Source: a virus (lineage: Duplodnaviria > Caudoviricetes). Taken from it: a stretch of DNA of 61,997 nt. The number at the start of each line of letters is the position of its first letter. Position 1 is the first letter of the stretch. Under the pieces are notes generated by a model that saw only the letters and a list, made by a program, of their open reading frames with translations, had not been told where the DNA came from and searched no databases. The position numbers were made by a program, and so were the translations under genes. Shown piece after piece: positions 27,921-52,105 of this stretch. The stretch covers positions 1 to 61,997 of IMG/VR virus record IMGVR_UViG_3300035661_000067. The stretch is one strand, 5' to 3'.

Positions 27921-27994
27921 TGGTGGCGCGGGATGGAATCGAACCACCGACCTATGGGTTATGAGCCCACCGGACAACCTGTCCTACGCGCGCC
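27921..27994 (-). tRNA. tRNA with CAT anticodon (Met-like, non-canonical)
   Basis: GGCGCGCG TA GGAC-AGGTT-GTCC G GTGGG-CTCATAA-CCCAT AGGTC GGTGG-TTCGATT-CCATC CCGCGCC A CCA; encoded CCA. Confidence 0.85.
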
Positions 27995-30014: not shown

Positions 30015-30851
30015 CTATTGCGTGAGGGAGGCGAGAACGCCCCCAAGAGGTGAGTTTTTGAAGCCATCTTGCAGGTTGTTCATCATGGTTTGCCCAAAAG
30101 ACAGAGGCGCAGTGTCCACAGATCTTTCCACAGGCGCGGCTGGGGTCGAATATCGGGCCAAGCTGTCGGCATAGATCTTCGATCGCCCGCCTTGGTTCGA
30201 GTTCATGCTCGTCCATGTGGACTGCAGCGTGTTCATGATCTCTGGGGTCATCCCACCCACCTGCAGATCCGCATCGAGATTGCGCCCAGTGCGCTTGCCA
30301 TAGTTCGAGGCCGCGAGTTGCCACGCATACTTGTCCTGATTTTCAGGCGTGAACGGCGTGTCGGCCCCGGCAGTGTCTTTCCAGGTGGACCATGTGAACT
30401 GATACCGGCCCGCCGCCGAAGACTTCCCGGCTGGGCCAGGCTCATAGATCCGCGGGTGAGTGCCGTTCAGGTCGAACTTTGCGCCACCTTGCGGAGTATA
30501 GCGCACGTCATAGGCCCCACCCGGCGATTCCCCATACGAGATCGCATTCAGTGCCGCGCGCTGATAGGGCGCAAGGGTGGTGTTCACAGGATCTGTAGTC
30601 GGGCCGTCAGGCTGGTAAGAGCCGCCGCCGTTGCTGCTTGCTGCGGGAGCATAGCCTGCAGCCGGGCCTGCAGCACCGCTGTTCTCGCCGCTGCCATCAA
30701 CAGGCATGCCCTGATAGGCGCCCTCGCGCATAGCATCGCGCCGCGCCTGATCTTCGGCGGCGATGTCCTGCTTCTGGCGCAGATAGTCCTTCTGCTTCGT
30801 GTAGCTGGTGGAGAAGCTGGAGAGGAAATCGCCGGTCGGAGATCCGCTCAT
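30015..30851 (-). CDS. Virion-associated lysozyme (lambda-R/GH104-like) ejection protein
   Basis: ALNAISYGES...YD, SSAAGRYQF, FTPENQD. Confidence 0.8.
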   Translation of the reverse strand: MSGSPTGDFLSSFSTSYTKQKDYLRQKQDIAAEDQARRDAMREGAYQGMPVDGSGENSGAAGPAAGYAPAASSNGGGSYQPDGPTTDPVNTTLAPYQRAALNAISYGESPGGAYDVRYTPQGGAKFDLNGTHPRIYEPGPAGKSSAAGRYQFTWSTWKDTAGADTPFTPENQDKYAWQLAASNYGKRTGRNLDADLQVGGMTPEIMNTLQSTWTSMNSNQGGRSKIYADSLARYSTPAAPVERSVDTAPLSFGQTMMNNLQDGFKNSPLGGVLASLTQ

Positions 30852-32275
30852 GCGGCCCTCGCCATCTGCGGAAGGGACCGCTTCGAAGTCGGCATATGAT
30901 TGCCGCGCGCCTCGACCATACGGTTTTGTCTGGCATCCATCGACTGGCTGACGGTCGGGTGTGTGGTTGCGCGGTCGGTCGCATTGGCCTTGGATTGCGC
31001 CATCGCCACCCGGTCTTGCCGGGCCTGCATCGAAGATCCGCCCGGGGATTTGCGGTCATCAGCTTCTGGTCGGCCAGCCGCCACATCGGCGCGCTCTTGG
31101 GCCTTGACCTTGAGCGTTTCGCCGGCCTCGTGGCTCTTGGATTCCTTCTCGCCCGCCTCACCCTTGGATTGCGCCAGAGCCACGCGGTCTTGCCGGGCCT
31201 GCATACTCTTGCCGCCCGGCGCATTTCGGTCATCGGCTTCTGGTCGGCCGGCCGCCACATCAGCGTGCTCCCGGGCCTTGACCTTGAGCGTTTCACCGGC
31301 CTCGTGGCTTTTGGATTCCTTCTCGCCCGCCTCGCCCTTGGCACCCGGAATCGACCGCTTGAGGCCATCGACCTCCTTGGAGAGTTCCTGCACTGCGCCC
31401 ATGACCGTGCCGATTGCGTCGATCACATTGATCGTGCGCCCGTCGCCGAACCCGGTCTGTGCCTTGAAGTCTTGCGCCATGGTGCCGACATGGCGCCCGC
31501 CGTCGCCCGCGCCGTCTTTGTAGGTCCAGTCTTTGACTGGCATGCTGTCCACCGCATCAAGCAGGGACCGGCCCGGCTTCTTGATGTCCTTCTTGGTGTT
31601 TTTGTCCGAGCCAAAGGCCAGACCCACGATGGAGCCGACGCCGCTGTAGAGCGCGGAACTGGCGTCGGCCTTCGCCTGATACCCCTGCATTTGCTGGGAA
31701 TACTGCTGGTTCAGGCTGTTGGCTTGCCCGGTATAGCCTGCCTGCGCGCCAGAATAGCCCGACGAAGCGGCTTGGTTTGATGTCTGGATGTCCGATGTCG
31801 CCTGCATCGGAAGCCCACTGACCATATTGATCGCGTTAGCCTGCATCGCATCGGCGGTCGCATGGGTCTGGGCGCGCGAGGCATTGGCAGCACCGGCCAC
31901 TTGGAGGCCACCCATGATCGAAGCTGACTTGTCAGCCGCCATGGCTTTGCCGGAGTTCGGGTTGACGCCCATGCCCTGCATCTGGCGATTCATCGCGCCA
32001 GTCTGCGCGTCGATCGAGGTTTGGGCCTGAGCACTCGCCTGGTTGGCCTTCAGCGCGAGGTTGTCCGCGCTGTCGTAATTGGCAGCGTCCTTGATGTATT
32101 GGTCCTGCATTGGGACCGTGACACTCTCGTATCGTGCCCGATCATCGGCGGCCCACTGGTTGGTGATGCCAGCCTGCTGCTGCATATACGCGAGATAGTC
32201 CTGCCCGGTCTGGGCCTGCATCATGGCCGCCTGGCCCATGGCGGGATCTGGCGACGGAACGCTGGGTTTACCCAT
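30848..32275 (-). CDS. Ejection/pilot protein with S74 intramolecular-chaperone domain and C-terminal repeats
   Basis: Q/A/M-rich N-terminus; SDKNTKKDI...WTYK...HVGTMAQD...GAVQEL. Confidence 0.75.
   Translation of the reverse strand: MGKPSVPSPDPAMGQAAMMQAQTGQDYLAYMQQQAGITNQWAADDRARYESVTVPMQDQYIKDAANYDSADNLALKANQASAQAQTSIDAQTGAMNRQMQGMGVNPNSGKAMAADKSASIMGGLQVAGAANASRAQTHATADAMQANAINMVSGLPMQATSDIQTSNQAASSGYSGAQAGYTGQANSLNQQYSQQMQGYQAKADASSALYSGVGSIVGLAFGSDKNTKKDIKKPGRSLLDAVDSMPVKDWTYKDGAGDGGRHVGTMAQDFKAQTGFGDGRTINVIDAIGTVMGAVQELSKEVDGLKRSIPGAKGEAGEKESKSHEAGETLKVKAREHADVAAGRPEADDRNAPGGKSMQARQDRVALAQSKGEAGEKESKSHEAGETLKVKAQERADVAAGRPEADDRKSPGGSSMQARQDRVAMAQSKANATDRATTHPTVSQSMDARQNRMVEARGNHMPTSKRSLPQMARAA
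30988..31341. repeat. 174-bp (58-aa) tandem duplication
   Basis: Copies begin at 30988 and 31162 (CCTTGGATTGCGCC). Confidence 0.9.
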
Positions 32276-32742: not shown

Positions 32743-34095
32743 TTACCAGGTGAAGATGTAGATCGCGCCGTCGCCGCCCACGCCGCCGCCGCCGCCGAGG
32801 CCCGGGTTCATGCCTACGCCGCCGCCGCCGCCGCCGCCGCCGCCTGCGCCGCCTGCGCCGCCTGCCGCGCCATTGGTCGAGGCGTTTACGGTCGATCCGC
32901 CGCCGCCGCCACCCGCGCCGCCGCGCGACGAGTTGCCCGCCGCACCCGCGCTGCCTGCGGTAGGAGCCGGACCAGACGTGCCCGCCGCGCCCCCGCCGCC
33001 GCTGGTATAGGAGTTCGAGGCCCCGCCTGCCGCTGCCGCGGTGACGGCAGGGGTCGCGTCGTGCCCGCCGCCGCAGCCGCCGCCTCCGCCGCCCCGCAGG
33101 GACGAGCCGCCAGCGCATGCCACGGCTAGGGTGCTAGATCCGCCGCCGCCGCCGCCGCCCCATTCCGCGCAATGGGTAGAAATGACGGCAACGGAGCCGA
33201 GAGAGCCAGTCCCTGCGACGCAGCCGGTGTTGACCGGGGCGCCGGGAGATCCGCCCGAGCCAGCAGCTGTGGAGCCGGTGCCGCCCGCGCTGGCTGTCCC
33301 GCCGCCGCCGCCGCCGCCCGTGACTGCGCCGGAAATCGCCCCGCCGCGCCCGCCGCCGCCACCAAAGGCCGAGACAAGGTTGCCCGCAGTGCCGAAGGTG
33401 GTGTTTCCGCCGATGCCGCCATCACCGCCAAGGGCGCCAGCCACACCGGGAACGCCTGCCGCCCCGCCTGCGCCTACGGAGAAGTTCTCGGTGGCGCTGA
33501 GGTCGGAGGCGATGAAGATGCGCTGGTTATAGGCCCCGGCGCCGCCGCTGCCGCCGCCCTTGGCAACAACCGCCGTGGCAAGGGATGCGCCTGCCCCGCC
33601 GCCGCCGCCCGCACCATATTCGACCACATTGACGAATTTCGGCACAAAGGCGGTGGGCTTGGTCCAGGTGCCCGCGCCCGACACAAGGCGGGTCTGCACA
33701 TCGTTCGGCCCGGCCTGATAGTTCCAGGTCGGGATGCCATTGTTGTTGTAAAGCTGGAAGTCGCCGTTGAGGTCGAAAACAATGGTTTCACCGGCCTGTA
33801 GGATGTGCGTGTAGCCGCGATAGGCCACAGCCGATTCCAGCTTTTCGATGCTGATCGTGTTCGGGTTCGAGGCGTCCCGGTTTGTCACGGACAGGCGCTT
33901 GATCTGCCGGAAGGTCGATGCAGCTGGCGCGGCGAGGATCGTCGTCGTCGTCGCCGTGGTGATCTTGGTTTTCTGGTCGCCCAGCCCTGTCACGCCCGAG
34001 GCTGTCGTGATGTCGGTATAGTCCACCATGATGTCGAGTGCCGCGGTGGAGGACGAGACAAGCTGGACAAGGGTCGTGGAGTTCAGAAGGAACAT
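32743..34095 (-). CDS. Glycine-rich tail fibre/adhesin
   Basis: GTWTKP...YGAGGGG, polyglycine tracts, ends GGDGAIYIFTW. Confidence 0.8.
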   Translation of the reverse strand: MFLLNSTTLVQLVSSSTAALDIMVDYTDITTASGVTGLGDQKTKITTATTTTILAAPAASTFRQIKRLSVTNRDASNPNTISIEKLESAVAYRGYTHILQAGETIVFDLNGDFQLYNNNGIPTWNYQAGPNDVQTRLVSGAGTWTKPTAFVPKFVNVVEYGAGGGGGAGASLATAVVAKGGGSGGAGAYNQRIFIASDLSATENFSVGAGGAAGVPGVAGALGGDGGIGGNTTFGTAGNLVSAFGGGGGRGGAISGAVTGGGGGGGTASAGGTGSTAAGSGGSPGAPVNTGCVAGTGSLGSVAVISTHCAEWGGGGGGGSSTLAVACAGGSSLRGGGGGGCGGGHDATPAVTAAAAGGASNSYTSGGGGAAGTSGPAPTAGSAGAAGNSSRGGAGGGGGGSTVNASTNGAAGGAGGAGGGGGGGGGVGMNPGLGGGGGVGGDGAIYIFTW

Positions 34096-40203: not shown

Positions 40204-40827
40204 TCAGTTCCCTTGCTCGGCGTCAACCGCAGCGATCATCACCTCGCGGGAGGTGCCGTCCTTGGGGGTGCGCCCGGTCACATCCTTGACCTTGAGCGCG
40301 ATTTCCGCATCAGTCAGGTCTTCATGCCACGCCTTCGGGGGAAGATCGGGATCGGCCGCATCTGGTTGGGGCAGCGCCTCGGGCAGCGCCTCGGGCAGCG
40401 CCTCGGGCAGCGCCTTGGGGATGGATCGCTTCTGCGCGCCAGCCGGGGCGGGTTTCGGGAGCTTGGCGGACTTCTCCACCGGGCCGCCGAGGCTCTGGTC
40501 GGTCAGTTCCATACCCATCGCGCGCATTGTGGACAGCACAGCGTGGCCGCTTTTGACGCACAGGAAGGTCAGGCTCTCGCCCGCCTCGATCTCCAGCAGA
40601 TCCTCTGCGTCGTCAACCAGCACAACACCAGCCTGGTTCTTGCCGATGCGGTAGGCTTCCTTGATGCCGAGCAGGGTGCCAATGTGATCAGGCTCGACCA
40701 CTTCAGCCAGGTGCGGGCCCTGCGGGTCATCGGCAGCGGGGGTAAAGTGGTAGTTCACGTTGTGACCATTCAGGGGCAGGTCGATCACGGTTCCACCTTT
40801 GCGGCGGAGAATGCACTCGATGAGCAT
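40204..40827 (-). CDS. Hypothetical head-region protein with ALPE repeats
   Basis: MLIECILRRKGGT...YHF; 12-bp GGGCAGCGCCTC tandem at ~40370-40415. Confidence 0.75.
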   Translation of the reverse strand: MLIECILRRKGGTVIDLPLNGHNVNYHFTPAADDPQGPHLAEVVEPDHIGTLLGIKEAYRIGKNQAGVVLVDDAEDLLEIEAGESLTFLCVKSGHAVLSTMRAMGMELTDQSLGGPVEKSAKLPKPAPAGAQKRSIPKALPEALPEALPEALPQPDAADPDLPPKAWHEDLTDAEIALKVKDVTGRTPKDGTSREVMIAAVDAEQGN

Positions 40828-40906: not shown

Positions 40907-41374
40907 TTACAGGATGTTGGCCGAGTAGATGGCCTTGATGCGGAGGTAGCGGCCCGCACCTTGGGTGATGTCGGCGGAGACGGTCAGGCCCACGCCGCGA
41001 TCATAGTCCACCGGGGCGATGTCGAAGCCAGTCGGCAGGATCATCCGGGTCTGGGCGGCGTTGTTGGAGACGGCGGAGAAGAACTCCACGCCGACAGTCC
41101 GCGCGTTCGCCACGTCCGGGTCGCCAGCGGTGCCGGACATCAGGCCGATGTTGCAGGTGCCGGCCGCGCCGGACACGCCGTAGAAGATCATTTCATCGAC
41201 CGTGCAGAAGGCAGGGAGGATGAACATTTCAATGCGGTCGGTGGCGGCGATCAGCGCCGGGTCTTGCCCGGACACGATGTCGTAGGAAGCGCGAACAGAA
41301 ACGCAGCCGCCCGCATCCTTCGGATAGGGCACGGAACGCTGACCGTTCGCATATTTGGTCTGACGGGTGGTCAT
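40907..41374 (-). CDS. Putative capsid decoration/cement protein
   Basis: 155 aa, beta-rich, directly after MCP; GAAGGA SD. Confidence 0.6.
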   Translation of the reverse strand: MTTRQTKYANGQRSVPYPKDAGGCVSVRASYDIVSGQDPALIAATDRIEMFILPAFCTVDEMIFYGVSGAAGTCNIGLMSGTAGDPDVANARTVGVEFFSAVSNNAAQTRMILPTGFDIAPVDYDRGVGLTVSADITQGAGRYLRIKAIYSANIL

Positions 41375-41412
41375 AGAAGATGTCCTTCAAAAGGGCGTTA
41401 CGGGTTGCAGTT

Positions 41413-41436
41413 CGGGCCGAGGCGAACCCCGGCCCG
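41413..41436 (-). terminator. GC-rich hairpin after the MCP stop
   Basis: CGGGCCG...CGGCCCG stem with TTCG loop on the minus strand; U-tract weak. Confidence 0.45.
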
Positions 41437-41448
41437 TCATTCAGAGGC

Positions 41449-42543
41449 TTACGGCGTCGGCGAGGACGTATCCACGGCCACCAGGCCGAAGTCCTTGCCG
41501 TTGTAGCGGGTCTTCTTGATCCCGACGATCATGCCAGCGGCCACGGTGGGCTCGTTGCCATAGTCTTCGAGCTCTTCTTCCCACATCATCCGGGTGCCGT
41601 TCGGGGTGCCGTAAGCGATGATGCCAGCCTGGCGGCCCATGAATAGGGCGCGCGAGGCGGGGAGGTTGGCGCCAGCACCGTAGTCGGAGAAGCGGATCAC
41701 TGACTTGTGGCTGTGCAGGATAACGCCGCCAATCATACCCAAGGAGCCCTTGAACATCTTGTCGTTGTCGCCATTCGCGGCCGCCGCAGCCTTCTGGATT
41801 TCGAGCCAGCCGGTCGCGCCAGTCGCAGTTTTCATGCTGTATTCTTGGAACAAACTCATCAACAGGATGTAGCGGGTTTCCCCGTCCATCGTGACCGGTT
41901 CCAGGTTGGAAGCGGTCGGGTCCAGCGCGCGGATCATGCCCACGTTCACGTTCACCTTGACCACCAGGTCGCGCGACATCAGGTCGCCGGCCACCATGGA
42001 AGCCTTGGAGGTTGCCGCGCCGCCATACATCAGGTGGGCGGTATCCGGGGCCTGCACGGGGTTGTTGGCGAAGCCGGTATAGGTGATCGGCTCATAGAAG
42101 TCCTGGTTGATGCCACGCGCACCCGACAGGTAAACGAAGGTCACTTGGTCGATGTATTCCGACCAATAATCGCCCAGCTTGTCGCGGGCCAGCTTGCGGA
42201 GATCATGCGCGGTGCGCTTCCGGGTCATCCGACCACCGGCCGAGACGCTGTGGCGCAGTTGGTCGATGCGAACTTCGTCGCTGTAGAAACGAAGGTTCTC
42301 TTCGCGGCCCTTGAGGCGGTTGTCGCCGGAGGTCGGGGTGCCCTTCAGTTGCACCGACAGGTCGAACTGGATGTCATCGCCAGCGTCCGACTGCAGTTCG
42401 GTCTTCTGCTGGATGATGGAGTTGTCGTCGGTGCCGATGAACTTCTTGGAGAAGTATTGCTTGGACAGCATGTCCGAAGCGAGCAGGCTGGACCAGCGTT
42501 TGATTGCGCGGGCATCACCAAACGGAACAGTGGTGGCGGTCAT
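41449..42543 (-). CDS. Major capsid protein, N4-gp56/DUF4043 family
   Basis: WS..LA.D.....YF..KFIG, DAGDDIQFDL, GD.RL.G.EE.L, IDQLRH.V, EE..DYGN, KKTRY..KDFG. Confidence 0.92.
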   Translation of the reverse strand: MTATTVPFGDARAIKRWSSLLASDMLSKQYFSKKFIGTDDNSIIQQKTELQSDAGDDIQFDLSVQLKGTPTSGDNRLKGREENLRFYSDEVRIDQLRHSVSAGGRMTRKRTAHDLRKLARDKLGDYWSEYIDQVTFVYLSGARGINQDFYEPITYTGFANNPVQAPDTAHLMYGGAATSKASMVAGDLMSRDLVVKVNVNVGMIRALDPTASNLEPVTMDGETRYILLMSLFQEYSMKTATGATGWLEIQKAAAAANGDNDKMFKGSLGMIGGVILHSHKSVIRFSDYGAGANLPASRALFMGRQAGIIAYGTPNGTRMMWEEELEDYGNEPTVAAGMIVGIKKTRYNGKDFGLVAVDTSSPTP

Positions 42544-42551
42544 CTTGAGTA

Positions 42552-42593
42552 TCCCTCATGCGGAGTTAAACACGCGCGAGGCACTCATGCGCC
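42552..42593 (-). promoter_or_regulatory. Two CGCATGAG hairpin-loop motifs in the MCP leader, one covering the SD
   Basis: GGCGC-ATGA-GTGCC and TCCGC-ATGA-GGGA. Confidence 0.5.
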
Positions 42594-42647
42594 ATTGCAT
42601 AGGCCGAGACATACCACCCATAGAGGCTTTTGAGAAGCCCTCACATT

Positions 42648-42839
42648 CTATGGCGTTCCGGGTTCGGCGTCCGACCGGGCGCGGAGGCCGCCATCGGCTC
42701 TCACATGCTGAATCAGGACATCGAGGGGCGCGGCGATTTCCAACCTGAGTTGACCAGCGCGCGATCGGATGCAGGTCAGGACAGTCTCCTTGTCCACCCT
42801 GATCTGGTCGCCGGGTTTCAGGTTCAGAAACAAAGACAT
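42648..42839 (-). CDS. CsrA/RsmA-like protein
   Basis: 63 aa; L.LNLKPGDQIRV....VLT......GQLRL.IAAP.DV.I fits the CsrA fold pattern. Confidence 0.65.
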   Translation of the reverse strand: MSLFLNLKPGDQIRVDKETVLTCIRSRAGQLRLEIAAPLDVLIQHVRADGGLRARSDAEPGTP

Positions 42840-42860
42840 GCCGCGCCCATCAATCGTTTA

Positions 42861-43793
42861 TCAGCCTTCAAAAGCGCCGTAGGCTTCGCGCTGATCCTTG
42901 GTCATGCGAGCCAGCGCGCGCTCGTGCTGCTCGATCTTCCCTTGGTCCAGAAGCCGGTTCAGGGCCTGCCAGCGGTCGCCGTCCGTATCGTTCGTCGCTG
43001 CCGCAGGGATGCGGGCCAGGGTTGGGATGGGCTCGGCGCGGATCGGCTCCGGCTTGGCGGCGGGATCGGCCGCTTTGGCCTTCGGCGCGGGGTTCTTCGC
43101 GGTCAGCGGGGCAAGGGCCGGATCGCCGACATCGAGGGCGTAGAGCGTCTGCGCCTTCTCAAGCTGCTGGGTGAACGTCATCTTGGCGTTCTTGGGGTCT
43201 GCAGTGACCAGTTCCACGAAGCGGTTGTAGCCAGGCAGATGCTCCGGCCCGAAAAGGCCCGGTGTTGCGGTCTTCACGGCGGTCACGGCAGCGAGGAAGG
43301 CGGCATCTCCCGATGCCTTGGCGGTCTTGATCGCCTCGGCGCGGGCGTTCTGCTCGTCCTCATACCGGCCCTGATCCTTGGCGATGGCCTTGATTTGCGC
43401 CTTGTAGTCGGTGTCGCTGATCTCGCCATCATCGAACAGCGATTGGAGGGCGGCTTCCTTGGTCGCCAGATCGGCCAGCTCAGCGGTGCGGTCCACCCGT
43501 TCCGGGATCACCGGGGGCAGTTGCTCGGCAACGGGGGCCGTGGCGGGTGTGGCGGCAGGCTCGGCCTTCACCGGGGGCAGGACGCCGGTTTTGGGGTCGA
43601 TCACCGGCTCGGCGTCCGGGTCATCTGGGTCATACGTGTCGGGTTCGCTGTCGCCCTCTTTCAGCGCCGCGCGTTCTTCCTCGGACAAGAGCGATTCATC
43701 GAGTTCGCTGCTCTTGCCCTCATCTGGGTCAGCCAGCGCGGTGTCGATGTCGGGGTCTTCGTCATCAAGCAGGTCTTCGGGGGTCTTCGCCAT
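42861..43793 (-). CDS. Capsid scaffolding protein
   Basis: Acidic 310 aa, PTLARIPAA and helical C-terminus; lies between portal and MCP; AAGGAG SD. Confidence 0.75.
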   Translation of the reverse strand: MAKTPEDLLDDEDPDIDTALADPDEGKSSELDESLLSEEERAALKEGDSEPDTYDPDDPDAEPVIDPKTGVLPPVKAEPAATPATAPVAEQLPPVIPERVDRTAELADLATKEAALQSLFDDGEISDTDYKAQIKAIAKDQGRYEDEQNARAEAIKTAKASGDAAFLAAVTAVKTATPGLFGPEHLPGYNRFVELVTADPKNAKMTFTQQLEKAQTLYALDVGDPALAPLTAKNPAPKAKAADPAAKPEPIRAEPIPTLARIPAAATNDTDGDRWQALNRLLDQGKIEQHERALARMTKDQREAYGAFEG

Positions 43794-43915
43794 GATTTCA
43801 GTCTCCTTGGCAGGGGTTTTAGTGGTCGTGGGGCTTAGTGATCGTCGCCGGTCGCATAGGGCGTCACGGACAGCTTTTCCACGATGCGCTGGGCTGGCAT
43901 GGGGGTTCTCGTGAG

Positions 43916-46216
43916 TTATTGCGCCATCTGGGGCGCGGGTTGGGGCGCGGAGGGTGCGCCAGGGGGGGGTGCTGCGGCTGTCGGAGGTGTCGCACCCATC
44001 GGGATGGGGCCTGCGGAGGGCGGAAGCGCACCTTGCGGGATGCCCTGGGGAAGCCCGCTCGCCTTGTATCCAGCCTCTTTGAGCAAGGCATCGCTGACCG
44101 GCGCGGCCTGCGGGACGGAAAGCATCTGGAACGCGACCTCCATCGCCTTCTGAAACTGTTCGAGGCTCATCGACACGGCGGCCTGGTGCAGTCCATCGGT
44201 TTCGGTCTTGGCCTTGCCGGCAGCGGCCGCCTTTTGCATCGCTCCGGCCTCGTCCAGCCCGACCTTCGCCATGAATGCGCGCTTCTGCATGTCGGCCTGT
44301 TCCTTCTTCGCGGCATCGGCGGCCTGCTCTTCTGGGCTCGGCGGCACGTTCGGATCGGCGTCGGGGTCTTTCTGGCCCGTCTCCTGCCGGATGCGTTTCA
44401 CGATCTCGTCACGGTTTGGCATATCGGACTGGTCGATCAGAAGGTCCATGATGAGAAGGGCGAACTGTGGGGCCACGGGGGCCACGGCCTTAATCATTTC
44501 CACCGTCGCATCGAACTGCGCCTGCCGCGCGGTCGCAGTCCAAGCCTGTTCGGTGATGATGAAGTCGGCCTTGGTGCGGCAGATGTCGTTCTCGGGCAGT
44601 CCATCGTTGATGGTCACGTGCTGCGGGACACCCCGGCTGTTCGTGATGCGGAACTGCTTCTCTTCGGTGAGGAACTGCTCCATCAGGCTCAGCATCTTCT
44701 GCCCGTGGATGCGGCGCGCGAAGGACAGGTTGTCCAGCGGCTCAGCCGTCACCAGCCCACCTTGGTCCTGCCGGGCGGTGATGGCCTTGCCCGATGTCGC
44801 GTTGGTGGTGCGGCCCATGTTTTCGTCGGTCACGCCGCCGACCTGCTGCACCATTTGGATATTGCGGGACATCAGATCCACGAAAGATGCGGCCAACTCC
44901 CGATCGACATTGATGACCAACTCCTTGCCGGGGTTCTTCACGATGATCGCGTCGGGCCGGGCGACCTCTTCTTCAAACTCATCGAGATCATCCACCGCGC
45001 CCTTGTCCATGATGGTCTTGTTCGTGGATAGGACGTGCTGTGCCTTCGAGGCGGCGTGGTTGATCTGGGTCTGCAGGCTGCGGAGGTTGCGGATCATGCC
45101 GTAGGACTCTCCATCGGCGGCCTTCCGGTAGCAGAAGATGGGCGTCAGCCCGAAGCGGTTGTGGCGATAGGGGCTCTCCTGGAAGTGCAGGATGCCTGCC
45201 GAGGTGAAGATCGCCACGTGCATCCGCATCTTTGTGCGGGTTTCGAGCGATGCTACACCCGTGTCCAACTCGTAGGTATGGCCCTCGCTGTCGGCGTCGA
45301 AGATTTCCCCGGTGAACTGCCCGCCCGACATCACATCAGTCTGGCAGGGCTTGCGAAACCAGCCTTCGATCAGCCGGACGCGGGACCGGGCCGAGGCGAT
45401 AAACCCGGAATTGCTGCTGTGATGGTTGCTGCCGTAGATGGTCTGGGCATTCTCTGCCTCGTCGCTCCACTCGTCGCCGAAGTGGTCGCCGGACCCGATG
45501 ATGCTGTGGTCGGAAGATCGCGCCCGGTCAATGGCTTCCTTCGCCCCAGGGTAGGTCGCATGCGCCACATCCTCATCCACCCACTTCATGCGGAAGAGAT
45601 AGCGAGCATCGGAATAGTCCTGCTCGCGGCTCAGGCTGTCGCGGATGATGTTGCGCCACGATTCCGCCCGGTCATAGACGGGCTCGCCCTCGTCGTCGCG
45701 CTGCCACCCCGATTCCACCCAGCCCTCGCCGCTCTTGATCGCGTCGGCATAGGCTTGGGACATGGCGAACTCACTGTTGTTCGCGTCGGCCAGGTATTTC
45801 ATCAGTTGCGTCTTGCGCTGGGCGGCCTGTGAGCCTTCCTTGCGGCGGGGGAGAATCTTGTATTCCGTGCGCCCGCGCCGCTCCGTGCCGATCATCCAGT
45901 TCAGCGTCGTGGCGACCACATTGTAGTTCGTCGCGTCCTGCCCGCGCGCCTTGAGGGTTGCCTTTTCCTCTTCCGACCATGGGTCGTTGTCGTAGAATCG
46001 CTCGTCGGTAGCCTTCTCGGCCCGCCAGTTAGCCTGAAACTCGATCTCGCGCAGGTAATGCCCAAGCAGGGAGCGATGCAGCACCTCCGCCTGGTGCGAC
46101 CGCAGGTCTGGGACCATGATCGCGCCGCCGCTGTGTCCGATGCCCGGCATGGGCCGAGAGCCCCGCTTGTAGGGGATGATGGTCTTGGCGCCCGCCGTGT
46201 TCCCGAGGTCATACAT
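43916..46216 (-). CDS. Portal protein
   Basis: FYDNDPW.......L..RGQ, N.......W.IG.E, GMIRNLR..Q..IN, NATSGKAI.ARQ.QG. Confidence 0.9.
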   Translation of the reverse strand: MYDLGNTAGAKTIIPYKRGSRPMPGIGHSGGAIMVPDLRSHQAEVLHRSLLGHYLREIEFQANWRAEKATDERFYDNDPWSEEEKATLKARGQDATNYNVVATTLNWMIGTERRGRTEYKILPRRKEGSQAAQRKTQLMKYLADANNSEFAMSQAYADAIKSGEGWVESGWQRDDEGEPVYDRAESWRNIIRDSLSREQDYSDARYLFRMKWVDEDVAHATYPGAKEAIDRARSSDHSIIGSGDHFGDEWSDEAENAQTIYGSNHHSSNSGFIASARSRVRLIEGWFRKPCQTDVMSGGQFTGEIFDADSEGHTYELDTGVASLETRTKMRMHVAIFTSAGILHFQESPYRHNRFGLTPIFCYRKAADGESYGMIRNLRSLQTQINHAASKAQHVLSTNKTIMDKGAVDDLDEFEEEVARPDAIIVKNPGKELVINVDRELAASFVDLMSRNIQMVQQVGGVTDENMGRTTNATSGKAITARQDQGGLVTAEPLDNLSFARRIHGQKMLSLMEQFLTEEKQFRITNSRGVPQHVTINDGLPENDICRTKADFIITEQAWTATARQAQFDATVEMIKAVAPVAPQFALLIMDLLIDQSDMPNRDEIVKRIRQETGQKDPDADPNVPPSPEEQAADAAKKEQADMQKRAFMAKVGLDEAGAMQKAAAAGKAKTETDGLHQAAVSMSLEQFQKAMEVAFQMLSVPQAAPVSDALLKEAGYKASGLPQGIPQGALPPSAGPIPMGATPPTAAAPPPGAPSAPQPAPQMAQ

Positions 46217-46664
46217 CTGCCTTGATGTCCTTTTCGATGACCTCGCCCGTCGCAAGGTTCCTGAAATGAGACGCGCCCACGATAAACTTGTCGAAGTTCT
46301 GCGGCATGGGAGGGCACATGAGCAGATCATCGAGCAGGTCGTGGATCACGGTCGCCACCTTCCGCGCGCTCGCGGGGGTCGCACTGAGCCCGAGGTCATT
46401 GGCGAAGAGCATGGACTGGAACGCGACGTGCGGGATGTCGCGGAGGCGCTTGTCCTCCGACCACGCCCAGGCGGTCAGGTCTTTGACCACGCAAGGGGTG
46501 ATGGTGTCGAAGTGCAGGAGGCGAAGGGTCGGGATCAGTGCGAGGCAGGGGCGCTGGTCGTCAAGGGTCCACGTGATGATGGCGGTGATCTCGCCACGGA
46601 CAAAGGTCGCATGCCGCTTGGACAGGTCCAGAAGTTCGCGGGCGACGGGTCGGTTCTCATACAT
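46209..46664 (-). CDS. Hypothetical protein upstream of portal
   Basis: 151 aa, overlaps the portal start; IHDLLDDLL..PP. Confidence 0.75.
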   Translation of the reverse strand: MYENRPVARELLDLSKRHATFVRGEITAIITWTLDDQRPCLALIPTLRLLHFDTITPCVVKDLTAWAWSEDKRLRDIPHVAFQSMLFANDLGLSATPASARKVATVIHDLLDDLLMCPPMPQNFDKFIVGASHFRNLATGEVIEKDIKADV

Positions 46665-46726
46665 GGGGGTCTATCCCTAGTGGGCTTCGGCATTCATGCC
46701 ACGAAATGGCCTGTGGGTCCACCAGA

Positions 46727-46927
46727 TCAGGTGGATTGGCGGGCGATGCGTTGCATGGCTTCCTCGCGGGCCTGCATCAGAGCGTTCTCGACGGCCGCCA
46801 TGACGCTCTTGTCGGTGCCGGCCATGCTGATCCTGCAGGTGAAGGGCGGGCCGAACGGCATCGCATAACGGAGGGCGACATCAGTCAGTTCAGGGTCGGG
46901 CGGCAGGTTGGGATGCGGTAGGGTCAT
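46727..46927 (-). CDS. Hypothetical protein
   Basis: ATGA-coupled, GGAGG SD. Confidence 0.6.
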   Translation of the reverse strand: MTLPHPNLPPDPELTDVALRYAMPFGPPFTCRISMAGTDKSVMAAVENALMQAREEAMQRIARQST

Positions 46928-47214
46928 TTGGCCTCCAGTGCAGCGGCGATCCCGCCTTCGATGATTTCAAGGGCCTTCCGCGTCACGTTCTCGCGCAGCT
47001 TTCCCGCGATCTCGATATGCTTTGGGACCGGCGATGTCGTCCAGTGGGTGGTGACGCCCATTGATACGCCCTGGACCTCCCACTCGATGAAGACGTTGTT
47101 GTGCTTGGTCAGGGTCGGCGGCTCCCAGACCTGAGAGGTGCGCAGCCGGTCCAGTTCGGTCATGTCTCCACGCCCGAGGCTTTCGATCAGCCGGTGAAGG
47201 GATTGCAGGGTCAC
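46924..47214 (-). CDS. Hypothetical protein
   Basis: GTGA-coupled, AGGAGG SD. Confidence 0.65.
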   Translation of the reverse strand: MTLQSLHRLIESLGRGDMTELDRLRTSQVWEPPTLTKHNNVFIEWEVQGVSMGVTTHWTTSPVPKHIEIAGKLRENVTRKALEIIEGGIAAALEAK

Positions 47215-47492
47215 ATCCGCCTCCTGATCTCTTCCGCCCGCTTGGTCGCCTTCTCCACCACGGCGCAGGCCAGCACCTCCAGCGCCAGGTGATCGACACT
47301 CGGCCAGACGCCTTCGAGGTGGATATTCGTGCCATCCGGCATCTGGAAGGTGCAGAACATGGACGTGCAGAGCGGGCCTTTGCGCGTCTCCTCGCCTGGG
47401 GGCTGGGTGAACGGGGCGATTCCTGCGGCCTTGTTGGCCTCATCGACGGCCTCGCGCTTCGCTTCCTTCTTGTAGCGGTCGATGGGCCTCAT
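47211..47492 (-). CDS. Hypothetical protein
   Basis: ATGA-coupled, 93 aa. Confidence 0.65.
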   Translation of the reverse strand: MRPIDRYKKEAKREAVDEANKAAGIAPFTQPPGEETRKGPLCTSMFCTFQMPDGTNIHLEGVWPSVDHLALEVLACAVVEKATKRAEEIRRRM

Positions 47493-47767
47493 TTGCCCTT
47501 CCCCCGGCTCCGCCGCTGCTTGCGCTTGCCGTCGCGCCGCACAAAGACGGTGGACAGGTCAAACTCCACCTCGGGAGGCATTGGGGCCTGTATCGGCGAG
47601 CCAAGCGCCACCCTGAACCATGCCTTGATGCGCTGCCAGCGGGTCGGCGGGGTTCTGATGAACCTCTTGCTGAAGTAGGATTTGCTCACCGTATCCATGG
47701 CGAGAGCCTTCGCCCATCGGTCGATGCCGGCCTGATCCCCGAATGGCTTGTGTTCCGGGTTCGTCAT
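47489..47767 (-). CDS. 92-aa protein resembling the major capsid protein N-terminus
   Basis: AAGGAG SD, ATGA overlaps; PFGDQAGIDRWAKALAMDTVSKSYFSKRFI vs MCP PFGDARAIKRWSSLLASDMLSKQYFSKKFI. Confidence 0.8.
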   Translation of the reverse strand: MTNPEHKPFGDQAGIDRWAKALAMDTVSKSYFSKRFIRTPPTRWQRIKAWFRVALGSPIQAPMPPEVEFDLSTVFVRRDGKRKQRRSRGKGK

Positions 47768-48021
47768 GCTTTTGCTCCTTCGGAAAGCCACCCTTGGACG
47801 GTGGCGATGTCTGCTTCGGTCAGGAACATTTCGCGCGCCGAGGCGGCCATCGGCTGGCCTTTCCCGGTGATCTCCATCATCTGCGCCTTGTTGCAGTTGC
47901 GCTTGATGATGTGCGCTGGGTCGCCGGTCAGGGACGCGAAGTCCCATTGCACCTCAAGGGTGCGATCTTCCTGGTTCACGCGGGCGGTGAAAGCCTTGTT
48001 GATGGTCGGGATGATGCTCAT
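47764..48021 (-). CDS. Hypothetical protein
   Basis: ATGA-coupled to terL, GGAG SD. Confidence 0.7.
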   Translation of the reverse strand: MSIIPTINKAFTARVNQEDRTLEVQWDFASLTGDPAHIIKRNCNKAQMMEITGKGQPMAASAREMFLTEADIATVQGWLSEGAKA

Positions 48022-49682
48022 AGGACGGACGCTCCAAGGTGGCGGGTTTTGCGGCGGGTGGGGCGCTGCTGGAAGTCCAGAAGCGATGGCTCAAAGCCTT
48101 GCGCGCACTGGCGGATGCTGTCGGCGGCCTCGGTGTGGGGGCTGTCGTGGTCATGCTCGTCGGACCAGACGCCAAGCCGGGTGTTCCACTTCTTCTTGTA
48201 AGCCTGGAGGTGGGTGAGCCCGGCCTCGCAGCCCTTGGCGTCGAACCAATATTGCGAGAACTGGTTGCGGACCATGGTGATGCCATGCGTCAGGGTGTCC
48301 ACGCGCGGCACGATGTGGAACTGCCAGTCAGGGGCCAGCGATTGCAGTGCGTCGAGGGGCCTGCCGACCTTGTATTCAAGCTGGCGCTCGTGGTTGGCGT
48401 CGTGCGGGAGAAACATGCCGCCGAAGAGATAGCCCGTCTCGCGCAGGGTGCGGACATACCACTCGTAGCCATGCCCCCAATTCTCGATGAAGCCGATGAA
48501 CCTGTGCTGGGTGCCGACATACTGGTGCAGCCAGATCGCGGTTCCATCGCCCGAGCCGATGTCCCAGAACGTGTTGACCCGGATCGAGGGGATGTGCGGC
48601 ACGATACCAATCCGTCCGGCCATGCGGGATTGGGCAAGCTGGACAGCATACCATGTGCCTTCGGTCGATTTCTGCCAGCACTCGGCGGGGGTCGAGGGAT
48701 ATTCTCGCCACATCTTCTCCACGTCGCCCGAGAAGTCATTGTCGCGCATCGACACGTAGTAGGCGCGCTGCCAGAGGTCGAGGTGAACGTTCATGGTCGC
48801 CTCGACGGTGGCGAAGTAGGCATGATCGGCGTCGGTCATCGACACATGTGCCGGGTTCGTCCGGTAGTTGGGCTCGATGAACCACGGATAGAACTTGAAC
48901 GCCCATTCCTTCTGCCCAAGCTGGCGCGGCGCGGCCTGCAAGGACTGGTGCAGCACCTCGGCGCGGTGCGCGATGTCGTAGAACGCGCCCTCTTGCCCCT
49001 CGGCGGTCGATTCAATGACGGCGATCTGGTTCTGAGGCACGGCAGGCAGGGAGCCGGTGATGATCTCCACGGCCTTCTGAGGGAACTTCGCGGCGATCTT
49101 GCCCATTTCGCTGATATGCAGCCGGTGGATGGTGCCGGAGCGCATCGAGGTCGCCACGCGGATGCTGGAGTTGTTGTGCGCCCAGAGCAATTCCTTGGTG
49201 GTCTTGCGCCCGAGTGGCGTCATAGCCTGGAGGAAGTCGGGCAGATGCTCGTAGGCGAACAGCACCTTGTCTCGCAGGATTTCAGCGGCGGGGTCCATGT
49301 GATGGGCGATGATCCCGACACGCTGGTTGGCGTTGAAGAGCGCATGGTCTGTCCAGCACAGCGCAATGGCGGTCGTGAATCCAAGCTGCCGGGCCTTGAG
49401 TATCACCGTGCGGTTGTGGAGATTGGTCAGGAAGTCCTGTTGCGCGGCGTTCGGCACGAAGGGCGCGATGGTGCCCGGGTCTCCGTCATCCTCACCCTTG
49501 ATGAGGATCTGATAGAGCCAGCCTGAGCCCAGCCGCCACTCGACACTGCCGAGGCAGTCGGTGATGTCCTGCTCGCTGGATGGGATGAAGTGCGCCGCGA
49601 CATCAGTGACTGGGAAGACCGAGGGAAGCACCAGCTTCGCGCCCGCCTTGCCAGTGATTGCACCGAGGCCAGACATCAGCAT
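48018..49682 (-). CDS. terL: Terminase large subunit
   Basis: ILKARQLGFTT, LHISE, IESTAEG, WDIG..D.TAIW, LPHDA, HD..H..AADS. Confidence 0.95.
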   Translation of the reverse strand: MLMSGLGAITGKAGAKLVLPSVFPVTDVAAHFIPSSEQDITDCLGSVEWRLGSGWLYQILIKGEDDGDPGTIAPFVPNAAQQDFLTNLHNRTVILKARQLGFTTAIALCWTDHALFNANQRVGIIAHHMDPAAEILRDKVLFAYEHLPDFLQAMTPLGRKTTKELLWAHNNSSIRVATSMRSGTIHRLHISEMGKIAAKFPQKAVEIITGSLPAVPQNQIAVIESTAEGQEGAFYDIAHRAEVLHQSLQAAPRQLGQKEWAFKFYPWFIEPNYRTNPAHVSMTDADHAYFATVEATMNVHLDLWQRAYYVSMRDNDFSGDVEKMWREYPSTPAECWQKSTEGTWYAVQLAQSRMAGRIGIVPHIPSIRVNTFWDIGSGDGTAIWLHQYVGTQHRFIGFIENWGHGYEWYVRTLRETGYLFGGMFLPHDANHERQLEYKVGRPLDALQSLAPDWQFHIVPRVDTLTHGITMVRNQFSQYWFDAKGCEAGLTHLQAYKKKWNTRLGVWSDEHDHDSPHTEAADSIRQCAQGFEPSLLDFQQRPTRRKTRHLGASVL

Positions 49683-49685
49683 GCA

Positions 49686-50315
49686 TTACTCCGCCGCATC
49701 GAGGGTTCGGTCGGGGTTAACGATCCGTATCGGTGGCCGGCCAGAGCCCAGCGGGCCCATGATCCGCACGGGAAGCGCAGAGCCGCGCGCCAAGAGTTCG
49801 CGGAAGGCATCGGCCAGCGGGTTCGGAGGCACGTTGTTCGGGCCTTCCTTGAAAAGCCCGAGGTGTTTGCCCAGCAGTTCGAGGGCCTTCATCTGGTCGT
49901 AGGGCTTGATCTTGACCTTCTTGACGGTCCTCGCCTCATCGCCCACGCCTTCGATGTAAGTTTCGATGGTGACTTCGGCCAGGGTGTCGATCTGCGCTGG
50001 GGTGACGTTCGCGGTATTCACGCAGAGATCACCACCCTCATTCACCGACACGAAGGCAGACATGCCGGTGAAGGCCAAGAGGCTCAGCCGGTCCACGATG
50101 TCATCGACGGTCTTGACGTGACGGCGCTTCGCATCGCCGAGTCCGGCCTGCAGGGCCGCCGCCACATTATCCTTGCTCATCAAGCGGCTCGCGTTTTGGG
50201 CTGCTCCTGTCGGGGAATAGCCCGCTGCGATGTAAGCCTGGGTCTGGTTCTTACCTTCGATGACGGCCTCAACGAAGAGGCGCTCGCGGACAGTCAGCTT
50301 GATGTTGTCCGCCAT
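49686..50315 (-). CDS. terS: Terminase small subunit
   Basis: FV......NQTQAYIAAGYS..GA...ASRL; K.K.YD..KALELLGKHLG. Confidence 0.9.
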   Translation of the reverse strand: MADNIKLTVRERLFVEAVIEGKNQTQAYIAAGYSPTGAAQNASRLMSKDNVAAALQAGLGDAKRRHVKTVDDIVDRLSLLAFTGMSAFVSVNEGGDLCVNTANVTPAQIDTLAEVTIETYIEGVGDEARTVKKVKIKPYDQMKALELLGKHLGLFKEGPNNVPPNPLADAFRELLARGSALPVRIMGPLGSGRPPIRIVNPDRTLDAAE

Positions 50316-50467
50316 GAAAAGGCCCACAATCCTTGGGGAAATTGCGGGCCAGTATCCGTCATGATGTGCGTTCGCGCAAGGTGGTGCGTTGTGCGTTCCG
50401 GGTTCGTCTATATGTGGCGCGACGAATATCCGCGGTCGGTTATCTTCGCGGGCCGAAAACTATAAGG

Positions 50468-50749
50468 TCAGTCCTCCAATGGGCTGATGGGTTTGGCGAG
50501 GCTCGGTCCGGGCCTGCGGCCCGTCTTCTTCTCCTCCAGGATCGCCAGATAGGATTGGTGGATGTTCGCCATCACGGGGTCGGGCTCGAAGTCATCCTTG
50601 CCGGTCCACGCTTCCAGCTTGCTGATGATCTTCTTCGCCATGAACAGCCCTGAGGTGTTGCCATCGCGCGCCTCGCTATTCTCGTGGTCCTGCACGATAT
50701 GGCGCAGCACCTCCCATTCCCGCTTGGTCAGCTTGATGTGACGGGCCAT
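50468..50749 (-). CDS. Hypothetical protein
   Basis: GGAG SD; MARHIKLTKREWEVL. Confidence 0.65.
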   Translation of the reverse strand: MARHIKLTKREWEVLRHIVQDHENSEARDGNTSGLFMAKKIISKLEAWTGKDDFEPDPVMANIHQSYLAILEEKKTGRRPGPSLAKPISPLED

Positions 50750-50750
50750 G

Positions 50751-51179
50751 TCAGTTCTCCTCCAGAACGGCTGTCCGCAGTGCTGCGAAGGCGGGCCATC
50801 GCTTGATCCCGGGCTTGGCAGGGTTGCACCAGCCAGCGCCAGTGTTCGGGCTGACGCCAAGGCTCTCCCATGCCTGCGCGCGGCTGCGGAAGCCCTTCTT
50901 GAAGCACAGCGCGTCGATCAGGACCGAGGTATCATCCGATGTGATCTCCTGGTCGATGCGTGGCTCCAGTTTCTTGAGGTAGCCGGTGGTGAAGGCGGCG
51001 CTGCGCTTCATTCGCTCGGCCAGAGTCTCGCTCTCCATGCCGAACAAGTCCCAGCCCTGCTCGATGTCCTTCCGCATCGCCACGGCTCCCAGCCCCCGGG
51101 CGCGGTCGGGCTCGCGGGTCATGGCCTCCCGCAGCAGCATGGCCTGATAGATCAACGTCTCGCCGATGGTCATCATCAC
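50751..51179 (-). CDS. Putative HTH DNA-binding protein
   Basis: SRAQAWESLGVSPNTGAGW resembles an HTH. Confidence 0.55.
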   Translation of the reverse strand: MMMTIGETLIYQAMLLREAMTREPDRARGLGAVAMRKDIEQGWDLFGMESETLAERMKRSAAFTTGYLKKLEPRIDQEITSDDTSVLIDALCFKKGFRSRAQAWESLGVSPNTGAGWCNPAKPGIKRWPAFAALRTAVLEEN

Positions 51180-52105
51180 ACGCCCTCCAGCATGTCTTGA
51201 GCCTCGTCGCGGCTGATCGGCATGAGGTTAGATCGCTCACATGCGGCAGTCATCGCCCATTGGGCCATCTGCGCGGCCCCTTCGGTCTGGGTGTCGCCGG
51301 TCCCGGGGATCAGCCCCGTGGCGCGCTCTTCCATCAGAGCGTCGAGGGTATCCCACGCCCAGCGCGGGGCATAGCGGCTGATGATCTCGCTGTCGTGCAG
51401 CTTTTCCTCACGGGCGCGCTCTTCGTCCACTGCATCCCACAGATCTTCCGGGGTCATACCGGCCTCTTGGGCCTTGCAATAGGCTTGCATCGCCAGCCAG
51501 ACGGCCTCTTTCGCCGGGTCGAGGGTGCGGGGTGGGCCGCCATTGGTGGGCATGATGCGCGCAAGCGAATCGCGGATGGCGGCGTTCATCGCGGCCTGCT
51601 TATCGTTCAGGGTGTCGGCCACGATCTTGCTCATCGGGCGCTCGGGCTCGGGTGGGGCTCCAGCGTTGGGCAGGTTCTGCCATGTGCGGACCTGCTCGCC
51701 CTCGGGGCCAAGCCAATCGCTGCCCTCGGGGCTGTTGTTCTTGCCGCACTTCGGGCAGTCATCGTCGCATTGCGCGGACCAGTCATCGGACCATGCCGTG
51801 CCACAGTCTCCGCAGACGTAGTTGTTCGACCAGACACAGGGGTTGCCGTCGCCATCGACGTTGAGGTTGTCGAAGCCGGGTTGGTCCGCCAGATCTGCGC
51901 GCGTCTCGGGCCGGAAGGCTTCTTCGATGATGATGGGTTCCGGGGCGCGGCGTTTCACGGTGCGAGCCGGCGACGGGACAGGGGCCTCGGAAGGCGGCGG
52001 CGCGCCTGCGATTGCGCCCATCTGGGCCTTGAGGCGGGCGAGGTCGGCGGCGTGGTCCCGCTCGGCTTGGGCGATTTCTTCGGGGGTCAGGGTGATCTTG
52101 GCCAT
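51176..52105 (-). CDS. Hypothetical protein with zinc ribbon
   Basis: GAGGA SD; NNYVCGDCG..WSD.WS..CDDDCPKCG. Confidence 0.7.
   Translation of the reverse strand: MAKITLTPEEIAQAERDHAADLARLKAQMGAIAGAPPPSEAPVPSPARTVKRRAPEPIIIEEAFRPETRADLADQPGFDNLNVDGDGNPCVWSNNYVCGDCGTAWSDDWSAQCDDDCPKCGKNNSPEGSDWLGPEGEQVRTWQNLPNAGAPPEPERPMSKIVADTLNDKQAAMNAAIRDSLARIMPTNGGPPRTLDPAKEAVWLAMQAYCKAQEAGMTPEDLWDAVDEERAREEKLHDSEIISRYAPRWAWDTLDALMEERATGLIPGTGDTQTEGAAQMAQWAMTAACERSNLMPISRDEAQDMLEGV

Follow-up and report, generated by a model that had tools for sequence, protein, structure and literature searches.

In Ralstonia phage GP4, according to the part of the published account used here (PMC9698820), residues 14-19 of the N-terminal arm (N-arm) of the major capsid protein (MCP) extend the sheet of a neighbouring subunit within the capsomer by a third strand. 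Residues 2-15 and the E-loop, contributed by different capsomers, form a layer that carries the cement-protein trimer (same source). In phage 80alpha the C-terminal helix-and-hook of the scaffolding protein binds mainly the N-arm helix, as stated in the available part of PMC5644958. A free N-arm could, by analogy, mimic these contacts. Extra genes of capsid origin are known as full-length paralogs or as satellite weapons. Here we describe a 92-amino-acid open reading frame (ORF), o92, from the IMG/VR virus record IMGVR_UViG_3300035661_000067 (Duplodnaviria; Caudoviricetes), the whole of which, 61,997 nucleotides (nt), was analysed and is called the window. o92 lies within the head module, between the genes for the large terminase (terL) and the portal protein, and its sequence is securely homologous to the N-arm and first E-loop strand of the phage's own MCP. 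Judged from its sequence it is an intact, probably translated, cut-down capsid paralog, and its conservation pattern hints at a function.

Homology and composition of o92

Domain limits were taken from GP4 gp2, for which the N-arm is given as residues 2-47 and the E-loop as residues 48-91 (PMC9698820, in the part used). The features compared were as follows.

47489-47767, minus strand: o92, 92-amino-acid ORF, truncated MCP paralog (ATG at 47767, TGA stop at 47489-47491)
47657-47746, minus strand: N-arm-like block, o92 residues 8-37, equivalent to MCP residues 7-36
47567-47656, minus strand: linker rich in Pro, Trp and Arg, o92 residues 38-67
47540-47566, minus strand: strand block with the FDLS motif, o92 residues 68-76, first E-loop beta-strand
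47492-47539, minus strand: basic tail, o92 residues 77-92
41449-42543, minus strand: MCP, 364 amino acids, parent family of o92 (PF13252, E 6e-66, 223 bits; phrog_334; GP4 gp2)
42436-42525, minus strand: residues 7-36 of the MCP N-arm, aligned with the N-arm-like block of o92

The earlier note on this DNA had described o92 as matching the N-terminus of the phage's own MCP in an N-terminal block and an FDLS strand, with a divergent middle and a basic C-terminus, and each part of this description was confirmed. BLASTP aligned o92 with the MCP at 25/66 identities (E 4e-12), and the ungapped block of o92 8-37 against MCP 7-36 contained 18 identical residues in 30. The Smith-Waterman score of 109 stood well clear of the shuffled controls (mean 28, standard deviation 4.3, maximum 51) and was reached by 0/2000 shuffles of o92 and 0/2000 shuffles of the MCP. 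Comparison of o92 with an alignment of eight MCP sequences by hhalign gave a probability of 97.2% (E 2.8e-11), with o92 6-74 equivalent to MCP 5-65. This is the secure span; weak homology extends up to MCP residue 80. The FDLS match is genuine, with 4/5 residues identical to MCP 59-63. The start of o92 aligns with the MCP's own start codon at an offset of one residue, and no continuation of the MCP gene was found beyond o92 in any frame.

The two genes share little at the DNA level, where a single 27-nt patch at 81% was the only similarity detected. Gene conversion, with o92 as a silent cassette for the MCP N-terminus, was rejected because no DNA similarity is left on which recombination could act. 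o92 is also outside the MCP family in the Pfam sense. It lacks a P-domain and an A-domain, and the PF13252 model gave no match to it even at E values up to 10. Its sole match in the PDB was the MCP chain 8h89_A.

Between the two conserved blocks, 3 of 22 aligned columns are identical to the MCP and the linker is eight residues longer than its MCP counterpart. Origin of the linker by frameshift was rejected, because the other two frames hold no MCP-like sequence and G+C content at third codon positions (GC3) is in phase. The tail carries 10 Lys or Arg in 16 residues, and the isoelectric point (pI) of the whole protein is 11.4. The last four or five tail residues overlap the ribosome-binding site of the next ORF, o93, so part of the tail composition may be a by-product; the site explains the last few Gly and Lys residues but not the whole tail. 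Alignment of the tail with the tip of the MCP E-loop was weak and non-significant.

Block-wise conservation

N-terminal sequences of 83 MCPs were collected from related loci. Of these, 54 were distinct, and the window MCP and o92 were compared with the 53 others. Fractions of identical residues by block were as follows.

N-arm, MCP 7-36: window MCP against other MCPs 0.56; o92 against window MCP 0.60; o92 against other MCPs 0.47
Middle, MCP 37-58: window MCP against other MCPs 0.61; o92 against window MCP 0.14; o92 against other MCPs 0.08
Strand, MCP 59-63: window MCP against other MCPs 0.78; o92 against window MCP 0.80; o92 against other MCPs 0.78

The N-arm block of o92 is as close to the window MCP as is the average ortholog, and its identity to the 53 other MCPs reaches 0.60. 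Within MCP residues 1-80, 28 columns are at least 90% conserved among the 54 distinct MCPs, and o92 keeps 14 of them: 8/11 in the N-arm, 0/5 in the middle, 4/4 in the strand and 2/7 beyond it. One further conserved column, before the N-arm block, is lost. The conserved N-arm residues include a Trp and, in the motif YFSK.F, the Tyr-Phe pair and the Phe. Identities are clumped accordingly, at 22/35 in the conserved blocks against 3/22 in the middle (Fisher p 3e-4).

Over the 35 codons of the conserved blocks, the proportion of synonymous differences (pS) between o92 and the MCP was 0.57 and that of nonsynonymous differences (pN) was 0.30. Three orthologous MCPs gave a pS of 0.42-0.74 and a pN of 0.21-0.40 over the same block; a fourth ortholog, L005, was excluded owing to an indel offset within it. 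Since pS is near saturation and pN falls inside the range of MCP orthologs, the conserved block of o92 appears old at silent sites and retained at the protein level as in true capsid genes. For 35 codons of a single sequence, this is an indication of purifying selection on the N-arm part.

Coding and translation signals

A Shine-Dalgarno site precedes o92.

47775-47781, minus strand: Shine-Dalgarno site GAAGGAG of o92, 7 nt upstream of the ATG

The site is the best match to the Shine-Dalgarno consensus among 12 genes compared, and o92 overlaps both neighbouring ORFs by 4 nt (ATGA), as the earlier note had read from the sequence. G+C content at the three codon positions of o92 was 0.55/0.52/0.82, against a GC3 of 0.78-0.84 in the phage's real genes. 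GC3 was in phase across all three sub-parts, the linker included (0.80). A codon log-likelihood (LLR) model was trained on 11 long genes and run on 90 antisense control ORFs. o92 scored 0.175 per codon, above all 90 controls (mean -0.28, maximum 0.106). The seven other test genes scored 0.28-0.44 and the training genes 0.29-0.46. By part, o92 scored 0.334 in the N-arm-like block, -0.081 in the atypical linker and 0.265 in the remainder. The other five frames over o92 gave negative codon scores, and the plus-strand ORFs overlapping it showed no coding periodicity.

The statement in the earlier note that o92 looks expressed rather than decayed is supported indirectly, by the gene-like coding signals, the strong Shine-Dalgarno site, the coupling within a late operon and the selective conservation; the uniqueness of the ORF counts against it. 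Taken together, the signals suggest that o92 is translated. Contigs of four DNA sequencing runs from sediment and microbial-mat metagenomes match the cassette that contains o92, with no difference listed between 46200 and 48000; no RNA run is among those listed.

Genomic context of o92

o92 is the second ORF of a five-ORF cassette.

46727-48021, minus strand: cassette of o85, o92, o93, o96 and o66, chained from terL onward by exact 4-nt start/stop overlaps
48018-49682, minus strand: terL, adjoining the cassette upstream (PHROG terminase families; relatives 52-59% identical)
46209-46664, minus strand: o151, conserved 151-amino-acid ORF (phrog_10057), directly after terL in most relatives
43916-46330, minus strand: portal protein, ORF limits (PF16510 P22_portal, E 1.7e-165, residues 90-700 matched)

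All five cassette ORFs have gene-like GC3 and codon LLR. No homolog of o85, o93, o96 or o66 was found in the 85 and 31 related loci or in the phage collection, where o92 matched MCP genes only. None of the cassette ORFs matched a family in Pfam, PHROG, NCBIfam or PADLOC. The terL-portal interval was spanned by 55 related loci on 53 distinct contigs. In 39 of these terL abuts o151, 14 carry other inserts of 140-3543 nt between terL and o151, and two are without o151. No relationship links these inserted ORFs with each other or with the o92 cassette. The cassette is thus cargo specific to its lineage, placed within the head operon at a hot spot where insertion recurs.

Loci recorded at this junction (46665-48017 of the window) are L027, L028, L029, L032, L045, L049, L056, L062, L069-L071 and L078-L080. 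L049 (4697-5176) and L062 (5562-6026) have a similar ORF of 154-159 amino acids at the hot spot, both beginning M-T-T-I-A-Y-R. The junction is also covered by 23 loci from genomes, several of which have gaps of 120-1800 nt.

No terminator-like site was found within the cassette, and no sigma-70-like site was found in 41000-51500, a scan limited to that one promoter type. On these two results a moron with its own promoter or terminator was set aside, for the promoter type scanned. An RNA element in the cassette was rejected, as Rfam gave a single tRNA, elsewhere in the window. Because the ORFs are chained by 4-nt overlaps with no internal terminator, the cassette must presumably be co-transcribed with the late operon, provided that the operon is one unit.

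Searches for relatives of o92

The earlier note had proposed a search for similar truncated capsid ORFs and had named uniqueness of the ORF, together with neutral evolution and lack of expression, as speaking against its idea; no such ORF was found in any collection searched, and on the point of uniqueness the idea was undercut. A word search of 5.8 billion proteins returned, at near lengths, only o92 itself, seen on 6 contigs, and no relative among longer proteins. A full HMMER scan of 1.84 billion representative proteins returned o92 alone. IMG/VR, metagenome and genome contigs gave no relative. Among phage records, 47 were matched by o92, each once and at the MCP gene; cultured Sinorhizobium phages were among them. 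A weak second N-arm hit in L087 (E 0.19) was spurious and lay inside the portal gene. o92 is known from one phage lineage.

Short proteins resembling MCP 1-80 were also sought, and of the two matches neither is equivalent to o92. One, P0002, is a frameshifted MCP fragment that is uniformly 79% identical to the MCP, unlike the mosaic of o92; the other is a contig-end fragment. No closer relative with the cassette was found. L006 has an MCP identical to that of the window, and its contig ends inside the portal gene. Scanning metagenome contigs for terL yielded a single locus, 57% identical and without the cassette.

Relatives of the MCP at 43-64% identity were also present in genome assemblies (L088-L118). 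These assemblies are mostly of Alphaproteobacteria, among them Sphingobium, Roseovarius, Thioclava and Rhodoblastus, and in some cases of Betaproteobacteria. Several of these loci lie inside long contigs and are probably prophages, which hints at the host range of the group.

Proposed role and alternatives

Our preferred reading sets out from the homology, mosaic conservation, coding signals and operon context described above, and supposes translation, binding and an effect on assembly. o92 would be translated and would mimic the N-arm, docking on the capsid-assembly machinery of its own phage, and we give this a probability of roughly one in three. Its source would be a PF13252 capsid gene, of which it took approximately the first 240 nt, reaching from the start codon to near the tip of the E-loop. 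The parts of the MCP that contact partners outside their own subunit, the N-arm and the first E-loop beta-strand, would have been kept, while the linker between them was replaced and a Lys/Arg tail was placed at the end. o92 would be made late, alongside terminase, portal, scaffold and MCP, and would act as a soluble mimic of the MCP N-arm. Docking would take place on the usual assembly partner of the N-arm, either the acidic scaffold or the E-loop of a neighbouring MCP, and would carry o92 into the phage's own procapsid or let it act on the procapsid. The basic tail may then bind packaged DNA or the acidic scaffold. The charges of o92 and the putative scaffold are opposite (pI 11.4 and 4.4).

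Several points weigh against this reading. No second N-arm copy was found in any of 116 related loci (85 from IMG/VR and metagenomes, 31 from genome assemblies), and in the collections searched o92 has no homolog of its own on which selection could be gauged by comparison. A younger copy of a foreign MCP, its middle replaced in frame, could show the same conservation pattern. The codon LLR of o92 (0.175) is the weakest of the eight genes tested, and that of its linker is -0.081. The four DNA runs that hold the cassette may be its source and so give no independent support. Hot-spot contents differ between phages, which fits dispensable cargo. Binding of scaffold to N-arm is known from 80alpha, which belongs to a different phage family from that of o92. 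A single-sequence AlphaFold2 model of o92 was of low confidence, with a mean predicted local distance difference test (pLDDT) score of 59.5 and two short helices only. The ESM Atlas contains the sequence, with a model pLDDT of 0.37, no usable feature match and structural neighbours that carry no meaning. A complex prediction of o92 with the MCP, run without controls, scored 0.00 and counts neither for nor against this reading.

Nearly as likely as the N-arm mimic is a functionless relic, that is, a 5' fragment of a capsid gene picked up on insertion of the cassette and transcribed, perhaps translated, only through its position in the late operon. Confinement to one phage lineage, a location at a hot spot of variable contents, the low codon LLR with an atypical linker and the want of a confidently predicted fold all agree with this. 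Open frames of the length of o92 are also common by chance in this genome, whose G+C content is 63%, and truncated MCP fragments such as P0002 exist elsewhere. The mosaic, however, is not what a relic would be expected to show. Neutral decay that erased DNA similarity (pS 0.57) should not leave a block at 60% identity beside an equally conserved block at about 8%, and the frameshifted P0002 shows a uniform identity. Intact GC3 periodicity throughout o92, the best Shine-Dalgarno site of the 12 genes and the exact ATGA overlaps on both sides also argue against a relic.

It is rather unlikely that the N-arm of the capsid protein has become a portable module, in which the phage would make, in free form, the stretch of its shell protein read by other proteins. 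Such a copy would be either a decoy, blinding host sensors of newly made capsid protein, or an address tag by which a DNA-binding peptide is loaded into the phage's own head.

The earlier note had put forward three roles, an immune decoy, a dominant-negative inhibitor of rival capsid assembly and an internal capsid-DNA tether. Taken as an immune decoy proper, o92 would show the MCP N-arm to a host sensor of newly made capsid protein and would occupy that sensor without triggering it. This, drawn by analogy, is an unlikely explanation. We know of no sensor of the PF13252 MCP family or of an N-arm, and a decoy would leave the basic tail without a role. Production together with the MCP, the retention of N-arm residues conserved across the family and the placement in a lineage-specific accessory cassette, typical of defence and counter-defence cargo, would suit a decoy; no cassette ORF matched a PADLOC family. 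Capsid-sensing immunity itself exists, as for CapRel (PMC9712102, in the part used). Our literature search for phage capsid decoys or mimics, with subscription journals and supplementary files outside its range, returned only animal-virus and gene-therapy papers, and no capsid-fragment decoy of a phage was among them.

A dominant-negative weapon is an improbable explanation of the same order, also by analogy. o92 would cap sites of N-arm or E-loop contact in capsid proteins from related phages or satellites that co-infect, spoiling the assembly of these, with the resident MCP tolerant of it. The N-arm block is near the family consensus (identity to the 53 other MCPs 0.47 on average and at most 0.60), and co-infection is plausible given likely prophage relatives in many Alpha- and Betaproteobacteria. 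Some capsid homologs redirect assembly, as Ccm of SaPIbov5 does (PMC8569155, in part). The identity of o92 to its own MCP (0.60) is, however, no lower than to any other, which leaves self-sparing unexplained, and late expression from the phage's own morphogenesis operon would expose its own assembly first.

That o92 is not translated, being a chance ORF over an old capsid-gene fragment, is very unlikely: a GC-rich genome does hold many long chance ORFs, but the in-frame GC3 of 0.82 with the other five frames negative, the strong Shine-Dalgarno site, the overlapping plus-strand ORFs without coding periodicity and a chain of five ORFs with 4-nt overlaps, unlikely by chance, all speak against it.

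The phage record and its head module

CheckV rated the 61,997-base record 100% complete. On the minus strand the head module runs terS, terL, five small ORFs, the 151-amino-acid ORF, portal, a 310-amino-acid acidic protein, MCP and a 155-amino-acid protein. Members other than those given above are as follows.

49686-50327, minus strand: terS, first gene of the head module
42861-43793, minus strand: putative scaffolding protein, 310 amino acids, placed between portal and MCP (phrog_8246, function unassigned); candidate partner of the N-arm
40907-41374, minus strand: cement (decoration) protein homolog, 155 amino acids (8H89 chain J, GP4 gp1, E 3e-7)

The scaffold role of the 310-amino-acid protein is inferred from gene order; the protein is strongly acidic (pI 4.4, 63 Asp and Glu residues). 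The MCP matches GP4 gp2 (PDB 8H89) at E 1.7e-153 and the 155-amino-acid protein matches the GP4 cement protein, so the capsid is probably of the GP4 type. At the DNA level, the cultured relatives are the Burkholderia phages DC1, BcepIL02 and Bcep22, with similarity restricted to the portal gene.

The portal ORF, read from its first ATG, overlaps o151 by 122 nt, and residue 90 is the first to be covered by its Pfam match, so that the portal protein probably starts downstream of this ATG. A stretch of 317 nt (42544-42860) between the putative scaffold and MCP genes is without a listed gene and is unusually long for a tightly packed operon. Rfam families and promoter-like sites were looked for in it and none was found. 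Two genes downstream of the MCP, after the cement gene, a 207-amino-acid ORF (40204-40827) contains a short tandem peptide repeat of A-L-P-E units. In contig L006, which is nearly identical, the counterpart at 4061-4717 aligns with it at 92% across 219 columns, suggesting variation in repeat number between strains.

Further features were seen outside the head module. Near its C-terminus, a 475-amino-acid ORF (30848-32275) contains a Lys/Glu-rich segment that is repeated, an internal duplication of some 50 residues. A 450-amino-acid ORF (32743-34095), among the tail genes, probably encodes a fibre or spike protein, and very long runs rich in Gly occupy its C-terminal half. One tRNA-Met gene (anticodon CAT) lies at 27921-27994 on the minus strand.

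Comparison with known systems

Ccm of SaPIbov5 resembles o92 in being an extra capsid-derived gene product beside a true MCP, and o92 too could act through capsid contacts (PMC8569155, in the part used). Ccm is a full-length HK97-fold protein that forms pentamers and is encoded by a satellite (same part), whereas o92, a fragment with the N-arm only, sits between terL and portal in the late operon of a complete 62-kb phage record and is known from its sequence. A Ccm-type satellite protein was ruled out for o92, which is neither full-length nor satellite-encoded.

For the 80alpha scaffold and CpmB of SaPI1, the available part of PMC5644958 presents the N-arm helix as the binding surface for a separate assembly protein, and this is a contact that o92 could imitate. 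Here the phage family differs, and o92 copies the bound side rather than the binder. Lambda gpD and other cement proteins are small and join the sheets of capsid E-loops and N-arms by adding a strand (PMC9698820, in part); they differ from o92 in having folds of their own and in being conserved across phages. o92 was rejected as a cement protein, since its PDB match is to the MCP chain only and the homolog of GP4 gp1 is a separate gene.

The closest comparison is with the PF13252 MCPs themselves, the phage's own and GP4 gp2 (PDB 8H89). o92 is homologous to these from the start codon to about the E-loop tip and keeps 8 of the 11 highly conserved N-arm columns and the FDLS strand. It differs in its length of only 92 residues, in its longer, replaced linker and basic C-terminal tail, and in having no P-domain, A-domain or second E-loop strand, and thus falls short of the complete HK97 fold. 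In the literature searched, no phage was described as encoding a fragment reduced to the N-arm and a single E-loop strand. A functional o92 would show that the arm through which an HK97-fold capsid protein makes contacts can work by itself, and would offer a simple handle on the long-standing question in phage assembly of which partners read the N-arm, the candidates being scaffold, neighbouring subunits, cement protein and host sensors. As a relic, o92 would be a clean case of gene fragments persisting at insertion hot spots within essential operons.

Two systems unrelated in sequence and setting offer analogies. In yeast Ty1, the truncated Gag protein p22 is a cut-down capsid protein that interferes with assembly. 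In phage T4, the internal proteins carry a short N-terminal capsid-targeting peptide that takes cargo into the procapsid. By these analogies, o92 could work as a capsid-targeting tag, like that of the T4 internal proteins, or as a truncated capsid inhibitor, like Ty1 p22.

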